A stretch of 64,000 bases of DNA from an uncultured Acidobacteriota bacterium. GTDB lineage: Bacteria; Acidobacteriota; Thermoanaerobaculia; Multivoradales; UBA5704. The notes beneath the pieces were generated by a model. It was given only the letters and a program-made list of their open reading frames with translations. It did not search any database and was not told where the DNA came from. Position 1 is the stretch's first letter. The number at the start of each line of letters is the position of its first letter. Made by a program: the position numbers and the translations under genes. This document shows positions 1,381 through 63,421 of the stretch, piece by piece. The stretch covers positions 1,408,001 through 1,472,000 of the forward strand of contig OY969474.1 in NCBI GenBank assembly GCA_963700145.1, read 5' to 3'.

Positions 1381-2421
1381 TCAGGCCGTCCCGAGCAGAC
1401 GCCCGATCACCGCGTCCCAGTGGATGTCGCCGACCGACCGCGCCCCCGCCTCCCCCAGCCGCCGCGCCTCCTCGCGGTGCTCGTAGAGCCGGTCGAGCCG
1501 GCGCGCCACCTCGGCCGGCGCGCCGGGCGGGCAGACAAAGCCGTTCTCGCCGTCGCGCACGAACTCCAGGATCCCGCCCGCGTCGGCCAGAGTGACGACC
1601 GGCTTGCCCGCCTGGAAGGCCTCGACGGTGACGTAGCCGTAGTCCTCGTCGTAGGGCGCGTAGTAGACGGCGAGGGCGCCGGCGTAGAGCTCCACCGCGC
1701 GGTCGTCGTCCACCCAGCCGAGCAGCTCGACGCGGTCCTCGACGCCGAGCTTCCCGATCAGCTCGGCGAGGTCGTCGCGCTCCGGCCCGTCGCCGGCGAT
1801 TTTGGCGCGGACGCCGCTCTTGACGTGCTGCATCGCCTTGATCAGCAGCTCGAAGCGCTTCATGCGGTTCAAGCGCCCGACGGTGAAGACGTAGTCGCCG
1901 AAGGGCCCGGGACGGAGGCGGCCGGTGAGCCGCGGCGGCGGGTAGAGGGCCTCGATCCGCATCCCGTTGTGCCGCTCGAGCCGGGCCGCGACGTTCTTCG
2001 AGATCGAGAAGACCCGCCGCGCCTCGGAGAGCGTGCGCGAATCCATGGCGCGCAGCATCGCCGTGACGTTGCGGTCGCGCGGCGTGTCGCGGAAGTCGCT
2101 GTAGCGGGTGCCCTGGAGGTCGTAGGCCTGGCGCAGCTGGTGAACCAGCCAGACGACCTTGTTCGGGTGCTTGACGAGGTAGGACGGGAAGCGGGTGGCG
2201 ATGACGAGGTCGATCTTCGCGCCGTCCACCTCGGTCAGGTCGAGGAGGCGCCAGGCGAGGCAGCTCTTGAAGAGCTGCGTGCGGTTCGGCCAGGTGAAGG
2301 GGAGCATCACCGTCTCGGCCTCGTGGCCGCGGGCGCGGAGCTGCTCGACGAGCGACTGGACCAGCAGCTCGGCGCCGCCGAAGGTGAACGGCACCTGCAC
2401 GCCGCAGACGCAGATCCTCAT
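1381..2421 (-). CDS. Glycosyltransferase family 4 protein
   Basis: GGAE N-terminal motif, VGRLNRMKR, and EDYGYVTVEA (EX7E motif). Confidence 0.93.
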   Translation of the reverse strand: MRICVCGVQVPFTFGGAELLVQSLVEQLRARGHEAETVMLPFTWPNRTQLFKSCLAWRLLDLTEVDGAKIDLVIATRFPSYLVKHPNKVVWLVHQLRQAYDLQGTRYSDFRDTPRDRNVTAMLRAMDSRTLSEARRVFSISKNVAARLERHNGMRIEALYPPPRLTGRLRPGPFGDYVFTVGRLNRMKRFELLIKAMQHVKSGVRAKIAGDGPERDDLAELIGKLGVEDRVELLGWVDDDRAVELYAGALAVYYAPYDEDYGYVTVEAFQAGKPVVTLADAGGILEFVRDGENGFVCPPGAPAEVARRLDRLYEHREEARRLGEAGARSVGDIHWDAVIGRLLGTA

Positions 2422-2861
2422 GCTGGAGGGGGCGGCGGTGGCACGCAGTCACCGCGGGCGCGGTCGTCGCGCTCGCGCTCGATCTCCTCGAGCTGCCGCA
2501 GCGCGCTCGCCAGCGCCTCGGCGAGCCGCGCCTGGTTGCCCGCCAGCTCGTGCAGGAGCTGGCTCGCCGCCTGGTTGAAGCGGTTCTGCCGCTGCAGGAC
2601 CGGCCGCGCGTACCACTTGAAGAGCAGGTGGAAGGCCGCCTTCTTGAGAAAGACGAGCGCCCCGCCGACGACCGGCCGCGGCGACACCGCGAGCGGCTCC
2701 TCGACGTACTCCAGGGTCTCGAGCTCCATGAGCCGCAGCTTCGTCTCCTCGCCGCCGGAGAGGGTGGCCAGCTCCGCCTGCCGCTGCCGAACACCGGCGC
2801 GGACGCGCTCCAGCATCTCGGCGACCTGGCGGTCGTCCGGAAGCGGCTCGCCGGCGGTCAA
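2418..2861 (-). CDS. Hypothetical coiled-coil protein of a glycan locus
   Basis: 147 aa. SPRPVVGGAL...KWYARPVLQRQNRFN resembles segments in polysaccharide-locus methyltransferases/chain terminators. 4-nt overlaps with both neighbours. Confidence 0.7.
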   Translation of the reverse strand: MTAGEPLPDDRQVAEMLERVRAGVRQRQAELATLSGGEETKLRLMELETLEYVEEPLAVSPRPVVGGALVFLKKAAFHLLFKWYARPVLQRQNRFNQAASQLLHELAGNQARLAEALASALRQLEEIERERDDRARGDCVPPPPPPA

Positions 2862-3235
2862 GTCGCGGGCTCCGTCTCCGGGGCCGGCCCGGGAGCCGCC
2901 TTCCGCCGGCGCGGCCGCGGGCCGCCGGTGCGCGGCCGGAAGCCGAACTGCAGCAGCTCCGGGCTCTTGGTGCCGAAGTGGCCGCGCAGCAGGTCGGCGA
3001 TGCGCTCCTTGACGTCCTGGCCTTGCGCCAAGACCTCGGCGCGGTCCGCGTTGACTTGGCGGAGCAGCGCCGTGACCCGGTTCTGCTCGACCTCCAGGGA
3101 CTTCGCCTGCCCAATGACTTCCGCAAGCTCCGCCCGCAAGGGCGCCAGGTGCGGCACCTCCCCGAGCAGCCCCTCGAGATTGCCGATCAGGGCCGACCAG
3201 TCTTTCAGCTGATCGCCGACCGTGCGGGTGACCAT
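2858..3235 (-). CDS. Small helical protein, repeat-array-associated family (copy A, 125 aa)
   Basis: ATG at 3235 with AGAGGAG RBS 7 nt upstream. MVTRTVGDQL...LRGHFGTKSPELLQFGFRPR. Aligns without gaps to 36924-37307. Confidence 0.85.
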   Translation of the reverse strand: MVTRTVGDQLKDWSALIGNLEGLLGEVPHLAPLRAELAEVIGQAKSLEVEQNRVTALLRQVNADRAEVLAQGQDVKERIADLLRGHFGTKSPELLQFGFRPRTGGPRPRRRKAAPGPAPETEPAT

Positions 3236-3261
3236 GGACTGACTCCTCTTGAGGCGTTCAG

Positions 3262-3500
3262 AACTCCGCCCGGAGCGGCCGGGTGGAGTTACCGGGCCCC
3301 CGGAACTCGACCCGAAGCGCTCGGGCGGAGTTACGAAGTGCCGAAAACTCAACCCGGAGCCTCCGGGCGGAGTTACGAGGCGCTGGTAACTCGACCCGAC
3401 GGCTCCGGGTGGAGTTAGGAGACGCTGATAACTCGACCCGAAGCGTCCGGGTGGAGTTAGGAAGCGCCGATAACTCGACCCGAAGCGTCCGGGCGGAGTT
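3262..3500. repeat. Tandem array: six 29-bp palindromic units with 13-bp spacers (42-bp period)
   Basis: Units AACTCnnCCCG-N7-CGGGYGGAGTT start at 3262, 3304, 3346, 3388, 3430 and 3472. Confidence 0.95.
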
Positions 3501-3788: not shown

Positions 3789-4031
3789 ATGACAAAGCTA
3801 GCTCCGAAGCCGCGGCGCATCGTCATCGAGAAGGCGCCAAGGAACTTCTCGGCCTACTCACCGGACCTGCCTGGGTGTGTAGCCACCGGCGCCACGCGCG
3901 AAGAGACCGAGCGGCAAATGTATGAGGCCATCCGCCTCCACCTGGAAGGGATTGCCGAGGATGGAGAGCCGGTGCCCGAAGCCACGGCGGTGGCCGAATA
4001 CGTCGTCCTCCTGCCTGCTGAGCGTCAATGA
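3789..4031 (+). CDS. hicB: HicB-family antitoxin
   Basis: IVIEK...FSAYSPDLPGCVATGATREE...AIRLHLEG is the typical HicB N-terminal domain. Confidence 0.88.
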   Translation: MTKLAPKPRRIVIEKAPRNFSAYSPDLPGCVATGATREETERQMYEAIRLHLEGIAEDGEPVPEATAVAEYVVLLPAERQ

Positions 4032-4366
4032 AGCTTCCTACCGGCGGAGCAATCGTCGACGACGCCAAGATCCGCGACTATCTGCTTTCTCTCGAGCATC
4101 CGGTTGGCAGATTCAAGGCGGTGTTCTTCGGGATTCTCGGCTACCAACGAGAGGACTGGCAAAGGCTTCGACACGACTTGCTTGCGATCCTCGAAGTAGG
4201 GGACGCAGTCGCCAGGCCATCAAGAAGCTTCGGGCAGAAGTACGAGGTGCGTGGTACGCTTCGCGGGCCAACCGGACGACGTGCTGAAGTCGTCACCGTC
4301 TGGATCGTGCTGGCCGGCGAGAGATTCCCTCGCTTCGTCACCGCGGTTCCGGGTGAGACACCATGA
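4028..4366 (+). CDS. DUF6883-like protein (putative toxin/nuclease)
   Basis: AIVDDAKIRDYLL..EHPVGRFKAVFF...FGQKYEV...TVWI...PRFVTA. ATGA overlap with hicB. Confidence 0.75.
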   Translation: MKLPTGGAIVDDAKIRDYLLSLEHPVGRFKAVFFGILGYQREDWQRLRHDLLAILEVGDAVARPSRSFGQKYEVRGTLRGPTGRRAEVVTVWIVLAGERFPRFVTAVPGETP

Positions 4367-4599
4367 GATTCAAGGAGCTCGATACAGTCGTTCTGGACCG
4401 CGACCTCCCGGATCACGGTTTGCGGCAGGGCGATCTCGGGGCCATCGTCCAGGTCTATGAGCCGGATGGTGTGGAGGTCGAATTCGTGACCGCGTCGGGC
4501 CGGACGCAGGCGCTGGTCACTCTCACCCTAGGCGACATCCGCGGGGTGCGGGACGAGGACCTCATCGCAGTTCGCACGCTCGCGGCGGGCGCTGCCTAA
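4363..4599 (+). CDS. DUF4926 domain protein
   Basis: FKELDTVVLDRDLPDHGLRQGDLGAIVQVY...EVEF. ATGA overlap with the upstream gene. Confidence 0.85.
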   Translation: MRFKELDTVVLDRDLPDHGLRQGDLGAIVQVYEPDGVEVEFVTASGRTQALVTLTLGDIRGVRDEDLIAVRTLAAGAA

Positions 4600-36923: not shown

Positions 36924-37307
36924 CTACTTCGTCGCCGCCGGAGTGGGCTCCGACGCCGGTGCCGGCGGCGGGGTCTCGGGCTTCTTCGTGCGCCGCCCGC
37001 CGCGCGGCCGGAGGCCGAACTCGTGGAGCACCTTGTTCTTGGTGCCAAACTGACCGCGCAGGGCGGCGTCGGCCTGGCTGCGCAGCTCGACGCCGCGGGC
37101 CTCGGCTCGCCGGCGCTTCTCGTTGGTCTCCCGCAGGCGCGCGGTGTAGATCTCCTGCTGGGTCTCGAGGCCCCGGGTCTCCGCGAGCCAGGCTTCGAGG
37201 TCGGTCTGCAGCGGCTCGAGAAGCGGGATCTCGGGCAGGCGCGCCTTGAGGTTGGTGCTCAGGATGTCCATCGCCGCGATGAGGTTGATCAGGTTCCGGT
37301 CAGGCAT
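36924..37307 (-). CDS. Small helical protein, repeat-array-associated family (copy B, 127 aa)
   Basis: AAGGAG RBS; MPDRNLINL...LRGQFGTKNKVLHEFGLRPR; paralog of 2858-3235. Confidence 0.85.
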   Translation of the reverse strand: MPDRNLINLIAAMDILSTNLKARLPEIPLLEPLQTDLEAWLAETRGLETQQEIYTARLRETNEKRRRAEARGVELRSQADAALRGQFGTKNKVLHEFGLRPRGGRRTKKPETPPPAPASEPTPAATK

Positions 37308-37392: not shown

Positions 37393-37655
37393 GAAGCCTC
37401 GCCACGCGTTGGCGAAGCTTCCCTTTTCAAGAGCGAAGCTTCCCCACCGGAAAGCGAAGCTTGGCTGTTCAAAGGGGAAGCTTTCCCGTCCGAGAGCGAA
37501 GCTTCGCTTTTCAAAAGACAAGCTTCGCCATCGGAAAGCGAAGCTTCGCCTTTCAAGAGGGAAGCTTCGCCAACGGAAAGGGAAGCTTCGCTTTTCGAAG
37601 GTGAAGCTTCGCCATCGGAAGGGGAAGCTTCGCTTTTCAGAGGGCAAGCTTCCCC
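37393..37655. repeat. Tandem array: 13 units of 21 bp with palindromic GAAGCTTC core and alternating spacers (42-bp higher-order period)
   Basis: Cores at 37393, 37414, 37435, 37456, 37477, 37498, 37519, 37540, 37561, 37582, 37603, 37624 and 37645. Confidence 0.95.
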
Positions 37656-37708
37656 AGTCGGGAGGGGTCGAGCCGCTTCCGGGTTGTTTTGTTCCCTCAT
37701 GAGCGGGT

Positions 37709-60100: not shown

Positions 60101-63100
60101 ATGCTCCGCCGCATGTTTTCGATCCGCCGTACCCTGACGTCCTGCTGTCTGCTCGCCTTCTTCGCCGCCCTTCCTCTGGCGGCGCAGCCCCTTCCCTGCC
60201 GGCCGTGCGCCGGCCTGCGCGTCGAGACGGCGTTCGCCGGCGAGGCGCTGGAGGCGTTGGCCGGGGCGCTCCCGGCCGGCGCCGACGCGACCGTCGTCCT
60301 CGCCTGGGAGGCGCCGCTCGACGGCTCCGCCGACTTGGCGCCCCTCGAGCGCGCGGCGGCCCTGGCGCCCCCTCCGGCTCCCGTCCCGGCGGCCGCCCCG
60401 CCAGCGCCCGCCGCCCCGGCGCCGCGGCTCATCCCCTGGCTCACACTCCCCTTCCGCACCCCGTCGCCCCTGGCGCAGCAGGCGGTGCGGCTGCAAGGCG
60501 AGCTGGACGCGGTGTCGCGCCTGGCCGCCGCGGCGCCGCCCGGCACCTTCTTCCAGATCGCCTGGCGGCCGGAAGGGCTCGAGGCGGCGCCGCTCGACTT
60601 CGCCGAGTACGCCTTCCTGCTCAAGCGGGCGGCGGTGGCGGTGACCGGTGCGCGACCGGACGGCCGGGTGGTCACCCAGCCTCTGCGCGCCGGCGCCGAG
60701 GCGGTCGAAGCGCTGTACGCGCAAGAGGTTGCGGCCTACCTCGAGGCGGTCGCGGTGCTTCCGGGCAGGCCCGAAGCGGTCGCGGCCACCGCCGAAGCGG
60801 TCGAGCGGCTGGACCCCGGGCGGCTGGTGGTTCTGGACGCGCCGCCGCTGCCGGACGATCCGCAGACTCTCCCGGCCGAAGCGGCCCGCTGGGCCGTCCG
60901 CGGGGTGTCGCTGGTCCTGTTTCGGGTAGAAAGGGAACAATCGGAGCCCGCGGAAGGCTCCGAAGGGGCTGCGGAAGCTTCCCCGGCGCCTCCGGAAGCT
61001 TCCGCTCCTGCTCCGGAAGCTTCCGTACCTCCTGCGGAAGCTTCCGCTTCGCCTCCGGAAGCTTCCGTACCGCCTCGGGAAGCTTCCGCTTCACCTCCGG
61101 AAGCTTCCGTACCTCCCCGGGAAGCTTCCGCTCCGCCTCCGGAAGCTTCCGCTCCCCCCCGGGAAGCTTCCCTACCCGCTCCGGAAGCTTCCGCACCGTC
61201 TCCGAAAGCCTCCGCGGCGCCCGGGGAGCCTCTCTCCCTACCTGAATCCTTCTTCCAGGCCCTCACCCCCCTCTCCGTCCTGGCCCGGGAGTTCGCCGGA
61301 GATCTTTCTTACGATCCCACTTCGTCTCCGCAAGGCTCCGGCGAGGCCTGGGCCTTCGTGCGCGGGGAGGACCTCGCCCTCCGGGTCATCGCCGTCACCC
61401 CCGCCGCGCCGCAGGTCGACCTCCGCTTCCCCGACCCGCTGCTCGGCAGCCCGGTGATCGTGGACGCCCCGACCGGCCGCACCGTCGAGGCGGCGGGCAA
61501 CCGGGTGGGGGGCGCCTACGTCGTCCGCCTCTACCAGCCCCGCCCGGTGACCCTCCTCCGGCTCGAGCGGGTGGAGCAGGTCGAGCTCGAGGCGGTCAAG
61601 GAGAGGGTCACCGTCGCCGGCGAGCGGGAGGTCCCCGTCGAGGAGATCCTCCGCCGCCTCCAGGCCTTCGAGGACGCCCAGGCGCGCCGCCTCCTCAACT
61701 ACCGCGCCGTCAACACCACCCACCTCCGCTTCCAGGTCGGGGCCAGCTCGCAGAGCTTCGAGGCGACGCTCCAGGGGCCGTTCTTCTGGACCCCGGCGAG
61801 CGGCGCCGACTGGGTCTGGCAGGACCTCTTCGTCAACGGCGTCCGCTGGCGCGCCAAGACGATCCCCGAGATCCCGCTGGTGCAGCCGGAGAAGGCGGCG
61901 GCCATGCCGCTCGAGATCCACTTCACCCGCCAGTACCGCTACCGCCTGCGCGGCAGCGAAAAGATCGACGGCCGCGACGGCTGGGTGGTGGACTTCGCCC
62001 CGACCGCCCTCGAGACCGGGGAGGGGGGCAAGCTCTACCAGGGCACTGTCTGGGTGGACAAGCAGCTCTCCTCGCGCCTGCGCACCCGCGCCGTGCAGGT
62101 GGGGCTCGAAGGGGAGGTCATCTCGAACGAGGAGACCCTCCACTACACGCCGATCGACGCCGAGGGGCGGGCCGCGCCCTGGGGGGCAGCGGGGAGCTTC
62201 GTCCTGCCGCTGCGCATCCTGGCGCAGCAGATCCTCTCGGTCGTCAACGCGGCGACGGTCGTCGAGCGCGAGACCAACCTGACCGAGGTCAAGGTCAACG
62301 ACCCCGGGTTCGAGCAGGCGCGGCAGGCGGCCGCGGAGTCGGACCTGACGATGGTGCGCGACACGCCGCAGGGGCTGCGCTACCTGGTCAAGGACGAGGC
62401 GACCGGCGAGCGGGTGGTCAAGGAGGGCTTCGACAGCAACAAGCTGTTCCTCCTGGGCGGCCTCTTCTACGACGACGCCCTCGACTTCCCGCTGCCTCTG
62501 GCCGGCATCAACTACTTCTCCTTCGACTTCCGCGGCACGGGCCAGCAGGTCAACGCCTTCTTCGGCGGCGCTCTCCTGACCGTGGACGTCGCCGAGCCGC
62601 GCCTTTTCGGCAGCCGCTTCGACGCCGGCGCCGACTTCTTCGCCCTGGCGGTGCCGCTCGCCGACACCGTCTGGCGCGACGACGACGAGGTGCACGAGGA
62701 GGAGGTCGAGACCCGCTCGGGCAACGTCGGCTTCAAGCTCGGCCGGCCGCTCGGGAACTTCGTCAAGGTCTCGTCGGAGTACACGCTCGCCCACCACGAC
62801 TACGGCACGACCGACAACACCATCGCCGGCTTCGTCCCCCCCGGCAACCACCTGACGCACTCGCTGCAGCTCAACGGCCGCTTCGCCCGCGCGGGCTGGC
62901 GCGTCGGGTTGGAGGGGAGCCTGCACCGCCGCTCGGAGTGGGAGCCCTGGGGGCTGCCGGGGAACCCCGACTACTTCGCCGAGGCGCAGGACTACTCGCT
63001 CTGGGGGGCGACGCTGTCGAAGAACTGGTACCTGCCCTACTTCCAGAAGATCGGCGCCGAGGTGAACTACCTGGGCGGCTCCGACCTCGACCGCTTCTCG

Positions 63101-63421
63101 AAGTACGAGTTCGGCTTCTTCGGCGCCAGCCGCGTCCACGGCTACCAGAGCGACCGCGTGCGGGCGACCGAGGTCACCGCCGGGCACCTCTCCTACGGCT
63201 TCGAGATCGGCGAGGCCTTCCGCCTGGAAGCGGTGGCCGACGCGGCGCTCGCCACCGACGAGGACGCCGGCCTCGACCAGGAGCTGCTCGCCGGCATCGG
63301 CGTCAACGGCACCTTCCTCGGCCCCTGGCAGACGGTCGTCAACCTCGACCTGGGCGTCCCGGTGCAGGGGCCGGACGACGGCTTCGTCCTCTACGTCGTG
63401 TTCCTCAAGCTCTTCCGATGA
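60101..63421 (+). CDS. Large exported protein with a probable C-terminal outer-membrane barrel and an internal heptapeptide repeat
   Basis: Signal peptide; alternating beta-strand C-terminus ending FLKLFR; (PEASxPP)n insert. Confidence 0.8.
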   Translation: MLRRMFSIRRTLTSCCLLAFFAALPLAAQPLPCRPCAGLRVETAFAGEALEALAGALPAGADATVVLAWEAPLDGSADLAPLERAAALAPPPAPVPAAAPPAPAAPAPRLIPWLTLPFRTPSPLAQQAVRLQGELDAVSRLAAAAPPGTFFQIAWRPEGLEAAPLDFAEYAFLLKRAAVAVTGARPDGRVVTQPLRAGAEAVEALYAQEVAAYLEAVAVLPGRPEAVAATAEAVERLDPGRLVVLDAPPLPDDPQTLPAEAARWAVRGVSLVLFRVEREQSEPAEGSEGAAEASPAPPEASAPAPEASVPPAEASASPPEASVPPREASASPPEASVPPREASAPPPEASAPPREASLPAPEASAPSPKASAAPGEPLSLPESFFQALTPLSVLAREFAGDLSYDPTSSPQGSGEAWAFVRGEDLALRVIAVTPAAPQVDLRFPDPLLGSPVIVDAPTGRTVEAAGNRVGGAYVVRLYQPRPVTLLRLERVEQVELEAVKERVTVAGEREVPVEEILRRLQAFEDAQARRLLNYRAVNTTHLRFQVGASSQSFEATLQGPFFWTPASGADWVWQDLFVNGVRWRAKTIPEIPLVQPEKAAAMPLEIHFTRQYRYRLRGSEKIDGRDGWVVDFAPTALETGEGGKLYQGTVWVDKQLSSRLRTRAVQVGLEGEVISNEETLHYTPIDAEGRAAPWGAAGSFVLPLRILAQQILSVVNAATVVERETNLTEVKVNDPGFEQARQAAAESDLTMVRDTPQGLRYLVKDEATGERVVKEGFDSNKLFLLGGLFYDDALDFPLPLAGINYFSFDFRGTGQQVNAFFGGALLTVDVAEPRLFGSRFDAGADFFALAVPLADTVWRDDDEVHEEEVETRSGNVGFKLGRPLGNFVKVSSEYTLAHHDYGTTDNTIAGFVPPGNHLTHSLQLNGRFARAGWRVGLEGSLHRRSEWEPWGLPGNPDYFAEAQDYSLWGATLSKNWYLPYFQKIGAEVNYLGGSDLDRFSKYEFGFFGASRVHGYQSDRVRATEVTAGHLSYGFEIGEAFRLEAVADAALATDEDAGLDQELLAGIGVNGTFLGPWQTVVNLDLGVPVQGPDDGFVLYVVFLKLFR
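60952..61213. repeat. Intragenic tandem array of 21-bp units with GGAAGCTTCC palindrome
   Basis: 11 perfect cores every 21 bp from 60973 to 61183, plus degenerate cores at 60952 and 61204. Confidence 0.95.

Follow-up and report, generated by a model that had tools for sequence, protein, structure and literature searches.

Genes for a small helical protein linked to regularly spaced palindromic arrays in one family of Acidobacteriota

Why should the gene for a small protein be preceded, twice within the same stretch of chromosome and each time in the same orientation, by a tandem array of palindromes? The question is raised by a window of 64,000 nucleotides from an uncultured Acidobacteriota bacterium of the class Thermoanaerobaculia (contig OY969474.1 of assembly GCA_963700145.1, positions 1,408,001 to 1,472,000), in which two such arrangements, copies A and B, lie about 34 kb apart (Table 1). 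A preliminary description of this DNA proposed that array and protein are a pair held together by selection, and offered three options for the pair: a nucleic-acid-binding protein with a phased array of binding sites, an RNA-protein pair organised like type III toxin-antitoxin loci, or a small selfish module. We find that the two copies belong to a real, strongly non-random and lineage-specific system that we could match to no known kind, and we tentatively interpret its members as cognate protein/array pairs acting on DNA.

Both copies were found as they had been described. The open reading frame (ORF), the ribosome-binding site (RBS) and Tandem Repeats Finder (TRF) bear out gene A with its six 29-bp palindromes at 42-bp intervals, and ORF and TRF do the same for gene B with its 21/42-bp array upstream in the same orientation. 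In the direction of gene A, array A consists of six units that keep an exact 42-bp register. Every unit contains an imperfect 29-bp palindrome, AACTCC.CCCGG......CGGGTCGAGTT, and 26 nt separate its end (3262) from the ATG of gene A. Array B consists of about 12 units of 21 bp and lies 104 nt upstream of the ATG of gene B. Its core is a 12-bp palindrome, G(C/G)GAAGCTTC(C/G)C, which is kept at 90% or more, as compared with 50-80% for the spacers, and two alternating spacers produce the 42-bp super-period. Genes A and B are paralogous, with 44 of 123 residues identical (36%, BLASTP E 4e-22) and one 2-residue gap in the tail; the earlier hand count of 37 of 104 residues without gaps comes close to this.

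To what extent is this arrangement a property of the gene? A profile built from A and B was used to search the genome that contains the window (G000; a single contig of 5.46 Mb, 71.5% G+C, 95% complete). It identified 16 paralogues at E 8e-9 or better, the next match being at E 0.37, and the number stayed at 16 after five profile iterations over all six-frame ORFs of at least 60 amino acids. All 16 paralogues are intact and have a GGAG-type RBS, and every one of them has an array upstream, in the same orientation and 26-135 nt away. TRF found 13 of these arrays, 39-135 nt upstream of the aligned start and on the same strand; the other three are degenerate, with a period of 20 or 21. For comparison with the rest of the genome we used crude gene calls based on G+C content at third codon positions (3599 genes, 77% coverage). 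A TRF array lies no more than 200 bp upstream of 13 of the 16 paralogues and of 54 of the 3585 other crude genes (Fisher p 5e-21), so that the enrichment check suggested in the preliminary description, with a profile of A and B and TRF upstream of the homologues, came out in favour of the system, and arrays do not stand beside random genes at an equal rate. Across five genomes of the genus, an array was present upstream of 52 of 59 near-full-length family genes. The architecture is thus conserved while the sequences diverge, as had been noted for A and B, which suggests that the pairing is selected or co-inherited. In what follows, an array with a family gene directly downstream is called gene-linked, and one with no adjacent family gene an orphan.

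We then examined how arrays are distributed over the whole chromosome, a scan made for G000 only, other genomes being sampled at 336-400 kb. TRF revealed 156 merged arrays of at least 120 bp. Counted by their shortest period, 78 of them repeat every 21 bp, 14 every 20 bp and 7 every 42 bp; taken together, these 99 measure 218 bp at the median, with quartiles of 181 and 249. Clustering by BLAST was applied to 120 arrays, 117 from TRF and the three degenerate gene-linked ones added by coordinates. It yielded 14 classes with at least three arrays, of which 13 include a gene-linked array and 12 include exactly one. These 13 gene-bearing classes account for 85 arrays (14 gene-linked and 71 orphans), with array A the gene-linked member of a class of four and array B that of a class of six; two gene-linked arrays are singletons. 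Shuffling the gene-linked labels gave p 1.4e-4 to 1.9e-4 over all arrays and p 5.4e-4 within clustered arrays only. The remaining 33 arrays fall in gene-less classes and probably include some of another nature. The one gene-less class among the 14 has 42-bp units, arrays of about 105 bp and a common flank of about 250 bp (78-84% identity), and is probably another mobile or structured element.

The 103 arrays with a period of at most 22 bp are spaced more evenly than random (coefficient of variation (CV) 0.77 versus 0.99 +/- 0.09), to a degree reached by 0.2% of 2000 random sets, and two classes are confined to one sector each (one with 6 arrays within 1.36 Mb, p 0.006, the other with 11 within 2.23 Mb, p 0.0014, both uncorrected for 11 tests). 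The GC skew of G000 offered no usable origin or terminus. Genes flanking the orphans are near background in orientation (43 tandem, 22 divergent, 19 convergent and 4 spanning), counts that rest on crude gene calls which misclassify some gene-linked arrays. Separately, identical ORFs resembling those of insertion sequences (430 and 281 amino acids by crude calls) lie no more than a few hundred bp from several arrays, near positions 1826066, 2032990 and 5154483 and near 2945985 and 5033286 of G000:C1, and two arrays of different classes have flanks that are 100% identical over 300 bp.

Are these units sites on DNA or hairpins in RNA? When all units of a class were pooled (12 classes, 19-121 units each), half-site positions showed the consensus base in about 90% or more of the units, and the 2-3 central bases and the spacers in 40-70%. 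As far as base conservation can tell, this contrast is the usual footprint of a symmetric DNA-binding dimer and not that of an RNA hairpin. Many cores are perfect or near-perfect palindromes of 10-14 bp (examples are GGAT-gt-ATCCGG, GGAGAT-ct-ATCTCC and CCGGAAGCTTCC), and since their arms of 4-6 bp enclose a centre of 0-2 nt, they make poor hairpins. Compensatory double changes within units were not in excess of those in a neighbouring-unit control (144 versus 125); complementary doubles do outnumber non-complementary ones (144 to 89), but the control has the same imbalance, which transition bias together with array-wide variants would yield. RNA of the array strand is predicted to fold strongly (-171.7 kcal/mol, z -12.3), as is expected of any palindromic array, and a search of the whole window against Rfam gave nothing at gathering score. 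Arrays also occur between convergent genes and within a coding frame.

The position of promoters bears on the same question. In other genera, inspection by eye places a TTGACA-N17-TAnnnT promoter between array and gene, 100-170 nt before the ATG. In G000, the expression TTGnnn-N16-18-TAnnnT matched upstream of 1 of the 16 genes, and promoter and terminator scans of loci A and B returned nothing useful, with terminator-like matches only within the arrays; the 26-nt gap of copy A, having no canonical promoter, implies that the promoter there must overlap the array. Taken with the anatomy of the units, these observations lead us to suggest, as a tentative part of the explanation developed below, that the arrays act as DNA and not as RNA.

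What kind of protein might bind such sites? The product of gene A has an N-terminal helix, a long helix of 58 residues, a C-terminal motif of the form L.G..G..S..L..FG..PR and a basic, proline-rich tail. In the AlphaFold2 model (predicted local distance difference test (pLDDT) 88), helices span residues 6-23, 30-87 and 92-97 and the tail is disordered; as modelled, the protein is an all-helical, rod-like helical hairpin. The preliminary description had recognised no family for it, and in line with this the family proteins had no match in Pfam, NCBIfam, PHROGs or PADLOC (for Pfam, NCBIfam and PADLOC at E up to 1 or 0.01). Its suggestion of a structure prediction followed by a fold search likewise led to the hairpin and, with Foldseek against the PDB, to nothing at E 0.001 or better. 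GCN4 and prefoldin came up in a profile search of the PDB at E 7e-4 or worse and were set aside as coiled-coil noise. The nearest clusters in the ESM Atlas are all annotated 'hypothetical protein' and are commonest in Acidobacteriota. An exhaustive profile search collected 1312 clusters (50% identity) at E<=0.001 and 578 at E<=1e-10, mostly of 110-160 amino acids, and ten longer homologues contained no fused domain.

Within the family alignment (119 sequences), G88, L94, G98 and P101 of the C-terminal motif are nearly invariant, and R59, R65, R76 and R78 of the long helix belong to the consensus. Prediction as a homodimer gave a score of 0.69, compared with 0.02 for the best of three controls; this mark was reached by 20 of 30 proteins whose solved structure is a pair of one chain and by 1 of 23 whose solved structure is a single chain, a calibration that holds roughly, our own alignment having been used. 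The runs agreed in at least 96% of their contacts, and the partner had a pLDDT of at least 88. With predicted contacts of residue 75 with 37, 79 with 33 and 54 with 54, the predicted dimer is antiparallel and has its dyad near residues 54-58, and the four conserved arginines of the long helix would line the dimer rod symmetrically.

The gene and the arrays also appear together across genomes. Of 24 other genomes belonging to this taxonomic family, 22 have the family gene, with 4-50 matches each, and the two that lack it (G013 and G022) represent one genus. None of 16 genomes drawn from 11 further families of the order has it. Arrays of at least 100 bp with a period of 20, 21, 40-42 or 60-63 were counted in about 400 kb per genome, taken as twenty 20-kb stretches (for G022, 16 usable stretches and one short contig). 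Among genomes with the gene, 13 of 15 sampled tandem arrays were of this type in G010, which has 50 gene matches, about 10 of 15 in G000 with its 16 genes, and 5 of 8 in G006, which has 7 matches. In G022, which belongs to the same family and has no gene, none of 8 tandem arrays in 336 kb was of this type, and in G031, from another family and also without the gene, there was no clear case among 6, one proline-type low-complexity array showing period 21 among others.

Do array and gene change together? We compared protein identity with the likeness of the upstream arrays for 59 genes from five genomes. The arrays were alike in 20 of 21 pairs of proteins at 80% identity or more, in 3 of 24 at 70-80%, in 8 of 34 at 60-70%, in 3 of 126 at 50-60% and in none of 1506 below 50%. 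The arrays therefore co-diverge with the genes, faster than the proteins do, and there is no exchange between distant paralogues. Locus A is syntenic in three relatives (G002, G003 and G004). Read by eye, its orthologous arrays (L182 in G004, L191 in G002) keep the inner CCCGG...CCGGG and differ in their outer arms (AACTC, AACAAT or CAACTCTT); the arms have changed on both sides, and the long palindrome persists.

The orphans appear to descend from gene-linked copies. In the class of locus L010, six orphans resemble the gene-linked copy beyond the array itself, over about 75 bp on its left and about 100 bp on its right. On the right the likeness extends to the RBS in two of them, and in one it takes in the first 17 codons before it ends. 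The leader, together with weak traces of the first 20 or so codons (E 0.04 and 0.1), is kept by two orphans of the L009 class, beyond which a search for gene remnants beside orphans gave nothing (best E 0.04). The orphans of the classes of A and B have only the array in common with the gene-linked copy. Dispersed gene-linked copies in the relative G004 indicate that whole modules duplicate, and the sequence similarities suggest that a redundant gene copy was probably lost after such duplication, leaving an orphan behind.

Four orphans were compared with the four same-genus genomes (G001-G004). Two are not found at the orthologous site in any relative, and one is conserved in G004 at 92% identity. 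The fourth lies at a convergent site (L075:1450-1960 in G000; GAACC....GGATC class), where an array is also present in G004 and G001, 76 unrelated bp take its place in G002, and G003 has instead an array of another class, the GAATGGGACAGGT type (L091:1200-1610); at this site the units of G001 differ from those of G000 in a concerted manner. Neither a target duplication nor a clean insertion site was seen at the one polymorphic site with both flanks. A third array in the window, which the preliminary description had missed, lies in frame within an ORF of 1106 amino acids (60101-63421, plus strand) that has no Pfam family, and is translated as heptads of the PEASAPP type. It belongs to a class of six whose gene-linked copy is outside the window, at genome positions 215261-215573. 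All four same-genus genomes have the coding array in their orthologous gene, though not at the same length, the orthologue in G002 having a gap about twice as long, and the reading frame is never broken by the 21-bp period.

How might such a system work? The module would consist of an array of about 200 bp, with some ten short palindromes placed every 20 or 21 bp (42 in copy A), and of the gene for the small helical protein directly behind it. As a spacing of 20/21 bp corresponds to two helical turns, the arrays would be phased rows of dyad-symmetric binding sites with half-sites under purifying selection, and the dimer of each paralogue would bind the palindromes of its own array class, one dimer per unit, dyad on dyad and side by side along one face of the helix. 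The dimers would thereby control the promoter of the protein's own gene and would also occupy orphans of the same class elsewhere on the chromosome, the orphans being duplicated modules that had lost a redundant gene copy. Class-specific binding is suggested by the linkage, the classes, the selection on half-sites, the DNA-type architecture, the predicted dimer, the co-occurrence and the co-divergence. That the binder is the family protein and not another factor, that it is specific for its class, and that occupancy has an effect (autoregulation, roadblock or bridging) is what we infer from these lines of evidence. Cognate protein/array pairs that act on DNA and form a lineage-specific module, with 16 instances in G000, are accordingly worded here as a serious but still tentative proposal. 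It corresponds to the first of the three options offered earlier, a binding protein with a phased array, which is the best supported of them with regard to half-sites, period and predicted dimer, the binding itself being the inferred part.

Several observations weigh against these cognate pairs. The family protein has no recognisable DNA-binding family or fold, and by simple arithmetic its 58-residue helix, at about 87 Å, is somewhat longer than the 71 Å of 21 bp of B-DNA. In other genera (18 genomes), TRF found an array at 9 of 20 loci and none at 11, although some of the 11 have repeats further upstream; at several loci of these genera a PCD/DCoH-like gene takes the place of the array, the gap between it and the family gene being about 60-170 bp, so the protein also occurs with no array beside it. 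The relation of one gene to one class has exceptions too. The loci L006 and L009 share one class in G000, their cores differing at the central dinucleotide, and in G004 an array of the GAAGCTTC type, as in B, precedes each of three dispersed gene-linked copies that are at least 90% identical. The main difficulty lies with L007, L008 and L010, whose proteins are 71-78% identical with only conservative differences, yet have arrays of different classes; a switch in specificity through so few changes is possible but awkward, and by eye these cores share GGA...TCC or GATAC elements. Finally, orphans that vary between species and an array within a coding frame would suit selfish spread equally well.

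Selfish spread is the substance of the main alternative, a vertically inherited replicator resembling REPIN-RAYT, in which the arrays are non-autonomous selfish DNA, the master copy of each class sits by a single-copy gene whose product the class requires for its spread or maintenance, and the orphans are functionless progeny. One gene per class with many orphans fits this description, as do the arms that L010-class orphans share up to the RBS or the first 17 codons, the weak N-terminal remnants at two L009-class orphans, the differences in orphans between species, the array in frame in a coding gene, and the restriction of a vertically inherited system to one lineage. Set against this, the Y1/HUH transposase family PF01797 has no match in G000, the 125-residue helical protein has no plausible catalytic fold in its model, and neither a target-site duplication nor a clean empty site was seen at the one polymorphic site with both flanks. 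Orphan half-sites are kept far more than spacers, which points to selection on binding and not to recent copying alone, and the arrays are more evenly placed round the chromosome than random ones would be, as the CV given above indicates. We regard the replicator as unlikely, and it overlaps with the cognate pairs, because its protein would still need to recognise the arrays. As for the selfish module among the earlier options, it is partly borne out: orphans derive from gene-linked copies and vary by species, but the loci with a gene are syntenic and passed on vertically. A different role for the protein is envisaged if the arrays are cis-regulatory platforms for some factor encoded elsewhere, with the small protein as cargo or as a sequence-blind cofactor and the mapping of classes to genes a result of common descent. 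Near-identical paralogues with different arrays, a protein with no known DNA-binding domain and arrays upstream of a canonical promoter in other genera would all be explained, and the PCD/DCoH-like gene upstream at 5 of 16 loci and in other genera, or the XRE-type helix-turn-helix (HTH) gene of a cassette, could be cited in its support. Yet about 14 matching regulators would be needed and no such candidate set turned up, the XRE genes at L006 and L007 are nearly identical although the arrays differ, and the PCD-like gene is present at only 5 of 16 loci; array presence, moreover, tracks that of the family in the sampled genomes, and the excess of orphans over gene-linked arrays (about 5:1) is left unexplained. 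We consider such an outside factor improbable.

The other two alternatives place the arrays at the level of RNA or give them no function. If the array were transcribed and cut, and its units bound and neutralised the protein, as in type III toxin-antitoxin loci, one would expect the array directly upstream in the same orientation, as it is, and transcription starting in or before the array, as the 26-nt gap of copy A requires there; RNA folding is strong as well, though any palindromic array would fold strongly. No family or fold like ToxN or AbiEii was found, however, there is no terminator between array and gene, the units are palindromes of 20/21 bp with centres of 0-2 nt, the window has no Rfam match and covariation is absent at the level of units. 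Orphans occur in every orientation relative to genes, convergent intergenic sites included, and in other genera a promoter intervenes between array and gene. An RNA-level antitoxin is therefore very unlikely, and the second of the earlier options falls on the same points, namely the missing ToxN-like family or fold, the poor hairpins and the intervening promoter. Neutral minisatellites, generated by slippage and adjacent to the gene by historical accident, would account for copy numbers that vary between species and for whole units, spacers included, being shared within a class through common descent. They would hardly account for linkage at 16 of 16 loci (p 5e-21 for the 13 found by TRF), for a period of 20/21 bp and a median length of 218 bp that are constant across unrelated sequences, for half-sites conserved beside variable spacers or for phyletic co-occurrence with the gene, and we give this explanation almost no credence.

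Does the system fall under anything already described? It is closest in logic to REPIN-RAYT systems, in which there is one RAYT per REP class. The abstract of a preprint describes REPINs as replicated by single-copy RAYTs and as mostly vertically inherited (bioRxiv 10.1101/2022.05.22.493013). The likeness lies in palindromic repeats that form classes with many intergenic copies, in the tie of each class to a single-copy flanked gene and in vertical persistence, and the present system shows exactly one gene-linked array in 12 of 14 classes, a gene confined to one taxonomic family, and co-divergence of arrays and genes.
The Y1 (HUH) transposase family PF01797, on the other hand, has no match at E<=0.001 in G000, while control genomes do match, and the REPIN-RAYT pattern is departed from in three further respects: the protein is a helical one of 125 amino acids, the repeats stand in phased tandem arrays of about ten units and not as single or paired REPs, and the array lies only upstream.

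Plasmid centromeres (parC/ParR of R1 and pSK41, sopC/SopB of F) have phased repeats upstream of the gene for a small dimeric coating protein, with the array at the promoter and autoregulation. The present modules resemble parC/ParR in having a phased tandem array directly upstream of a small-protein gene at 16 of 16 loci, binding being predicted here. They differ in that the modelled protein is all-helical, with no strand and no ribbon-helix-helix (RHH) or HTH family, and in their chromosomal setting, where 16 paralogues go with about 14 array classes and some 100 arrays; no motor or ATPase gene of the ParM, ParA or TubZ type was found among the neighbours of A and B or the eight genes of the cassette locus L051. 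Iterons of the P1 incA type are repeats of about 20 bp, or two helical turns, beside a Rep gene, with extra gene-less arrays that titrate the protein; iteron modules in general have direct repeats of 17-22 bp next to an AT-rich region with DnaA boxes. The period of 20/21 bp, the adjacent gene for a candidate binding protein and the gene-less arrays elsewhere are all reminiscent of them, but the units here are palindromic and not directional, no Rep family was found in Pfam or NCBIfam, and the model is a helical hairpin and not a winged-helix Rep. With type III toxin-antitoxin systems (ToxIN, CptIN, TenpIN) the modules share a small gene that directly follows a tandem array of like orientation; those systems have direct RNA repeats of about 34-45 nt and a terminator, unlike the 20/21-bp palindromes, the lack of a terminator between array and gene and the genome-wide orphans seen here. 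Identity with them was rejected for want of a ToxN/AbiEii family or fold and of an RNA-repeat architecture. Because the system lacks defining features of each of REPIN-RAYT, plasmid centromere, iteron and ToxIN, we file it under none of them.

At a minimum, the analysis establishes array linkage at 16 of 16 loci, nearly one gene per class and phyletic co-occurrence. The literature listings and abstract openings searched contained no description of such arrays or of the protein family, and for Acidobacteria or Thermoanaerobaculia no mention of palindromic arrays with a 21-bp period. A functional pairing would represent a new class of bacterial DNA-protein system. It would provide a natural set of orthogonal protein/DNA-array pairs, usable as tools like lacO/tetO arrays, and a test case for the co-evolution of binding specificity and repeat arrays, comparable to that of satellites and centromere proteins; it might also reveal how chromosomes are organised, or how selfish DNA is inherited vertically, by a principle new to this little-studied phylum or beyond it. 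One may go further and ask whether the modules are either a chromosomal address system of about 14 co-evolving dimer/array pairs or, for the first time, a persistent replicator of the REPIN kind that depends on a DNA-binding protein without enzymatic activity, a proposition that we put forward as doubtful. As an address system, dimers of each type would assemble on their own arrays into a filament about ten dimers long, and the roughly 100 arrays, one about every 53 kb and some classes in one sector, would give structure to the nucleoid as anchors, insulators or bridges specific to a class, possibly with a DCoH-like cofactor as in eukaryotic HNF1.

The cofactor is suggested by recurrent neighbours. 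A gene of the PCD/DCoH family (PF01329) lies directly upstream of the array at 5 of the 16 loci in G000, the sixth PF01329 match of that genome being an ordinary, unlinked copy. In other genera it stands directly upstream of the family gene (E 1e-17 and 1e-20 in two examples), and coordinates indicate many such adjacent pairs. HHP is the catalytic motif of PCD/DCoH; at the expected position the linked paralogues read YFP or HYP by eye, and from their sequence they may have become partners of the small dimer that lack enzymatic activity. DCoH binds the helical dimerisation domain of the transcription factor HNF1, and a PF01329 gene upstream of a gene for a small helical dimer offers an analogy only, the partner here not being a homeodomain protein and the PCD-like gene being limited in G000 to those five loci. 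A longer cassette recurs around several of the paralogues and has the order XRE-type HTH gene, 274-residue gene, PCD-like remnant, array and family gene, followed by genes of 137, 315, 247 and 204 amino acids; the last four have no family. The ORF directly downstream of gene B resembles the 315-residue cassette gene and has no match in Pfam, NCBIfam or PADLOC and no usable one in the Atlas. L006, L008 and L009 have flanks that agree at 89-91% identity for about 250 bp, and the L008 array is in a different class from those of L006 and L009.

Table 1. Positions of the modules, their neighbours and related features. Plain numbers refer to the window; G000:C1 is the genome contig.
Feature	Position	Strand	Remarks
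Gene A (P0002)	2858..3235	-	ATG at 3235, stop 2858-2860, 125 amino acids; ORF and translation
RBS of gene A, GAGGAG	3243..3248	-	7 nt ahead of ATG; read from sequence
Array A	3262..3500	.	TRF: period 42, 5.7 copies, 78% matches
Gene B (P0001)	36924..37307	-	127 amino acids, RBS AAGGAG
Array B	37412..37661	.	TRF: period 21 (11.6 copies) or 42 (5.9 copies, 81% matches)
Third array, CCGGAAGCTTCCGG core	60972..61215	.	TRF: 21 bp x 11.6
Context ORF, 147 amino acids (P0003)	2418..2861	-	overlaps gene A stop; no Pfam family
GT4 glycosyltransferase	1381-2421		after the 147-residue ORF; Glycos_transf_1, E 1e-34
P0004, 310 amino acids	35931..36863	-	directly downstream of gene B; 63% identical to 315-residue cassette gene
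Cassette example	L051:759-6491 = G000:C1:3103458-3109190		XRE HTH is PF01381, E 5e-6
PF01329 paralogues at array/family gene	G000:C1:2032319-2032588, 3203498-3203758, 3395785-3396048, 332764-333030, 4271223-4271360; L031:1908-2210; L049:2004-2300		
Gene-less 42-bp class members	G000:C1:409618-409876, 1365071-1365177, 1929398-1929502		

Around copy A, the 147-residue ORF and the GT4 gene are not recurrent partners of the small helical family, and the former has no similarity to the 137-residue cassette gene. Beyond array A, at 3789-4596 on the plus strand, lie a HicB-like antitoxin gene (PF15919, E 4e-11), a DUF6883 gene (E 2e-27) and a DUF4926 gene (E 1e-19), three small genes that look like a toxin-antitoxin-type cluster unrelated to the small helical family. 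Outside the window, G000:C1:1078565-1093367 is a CRISPR-like region with a repeat of about 37 nt and periods of 76-83 bp in several blocks.

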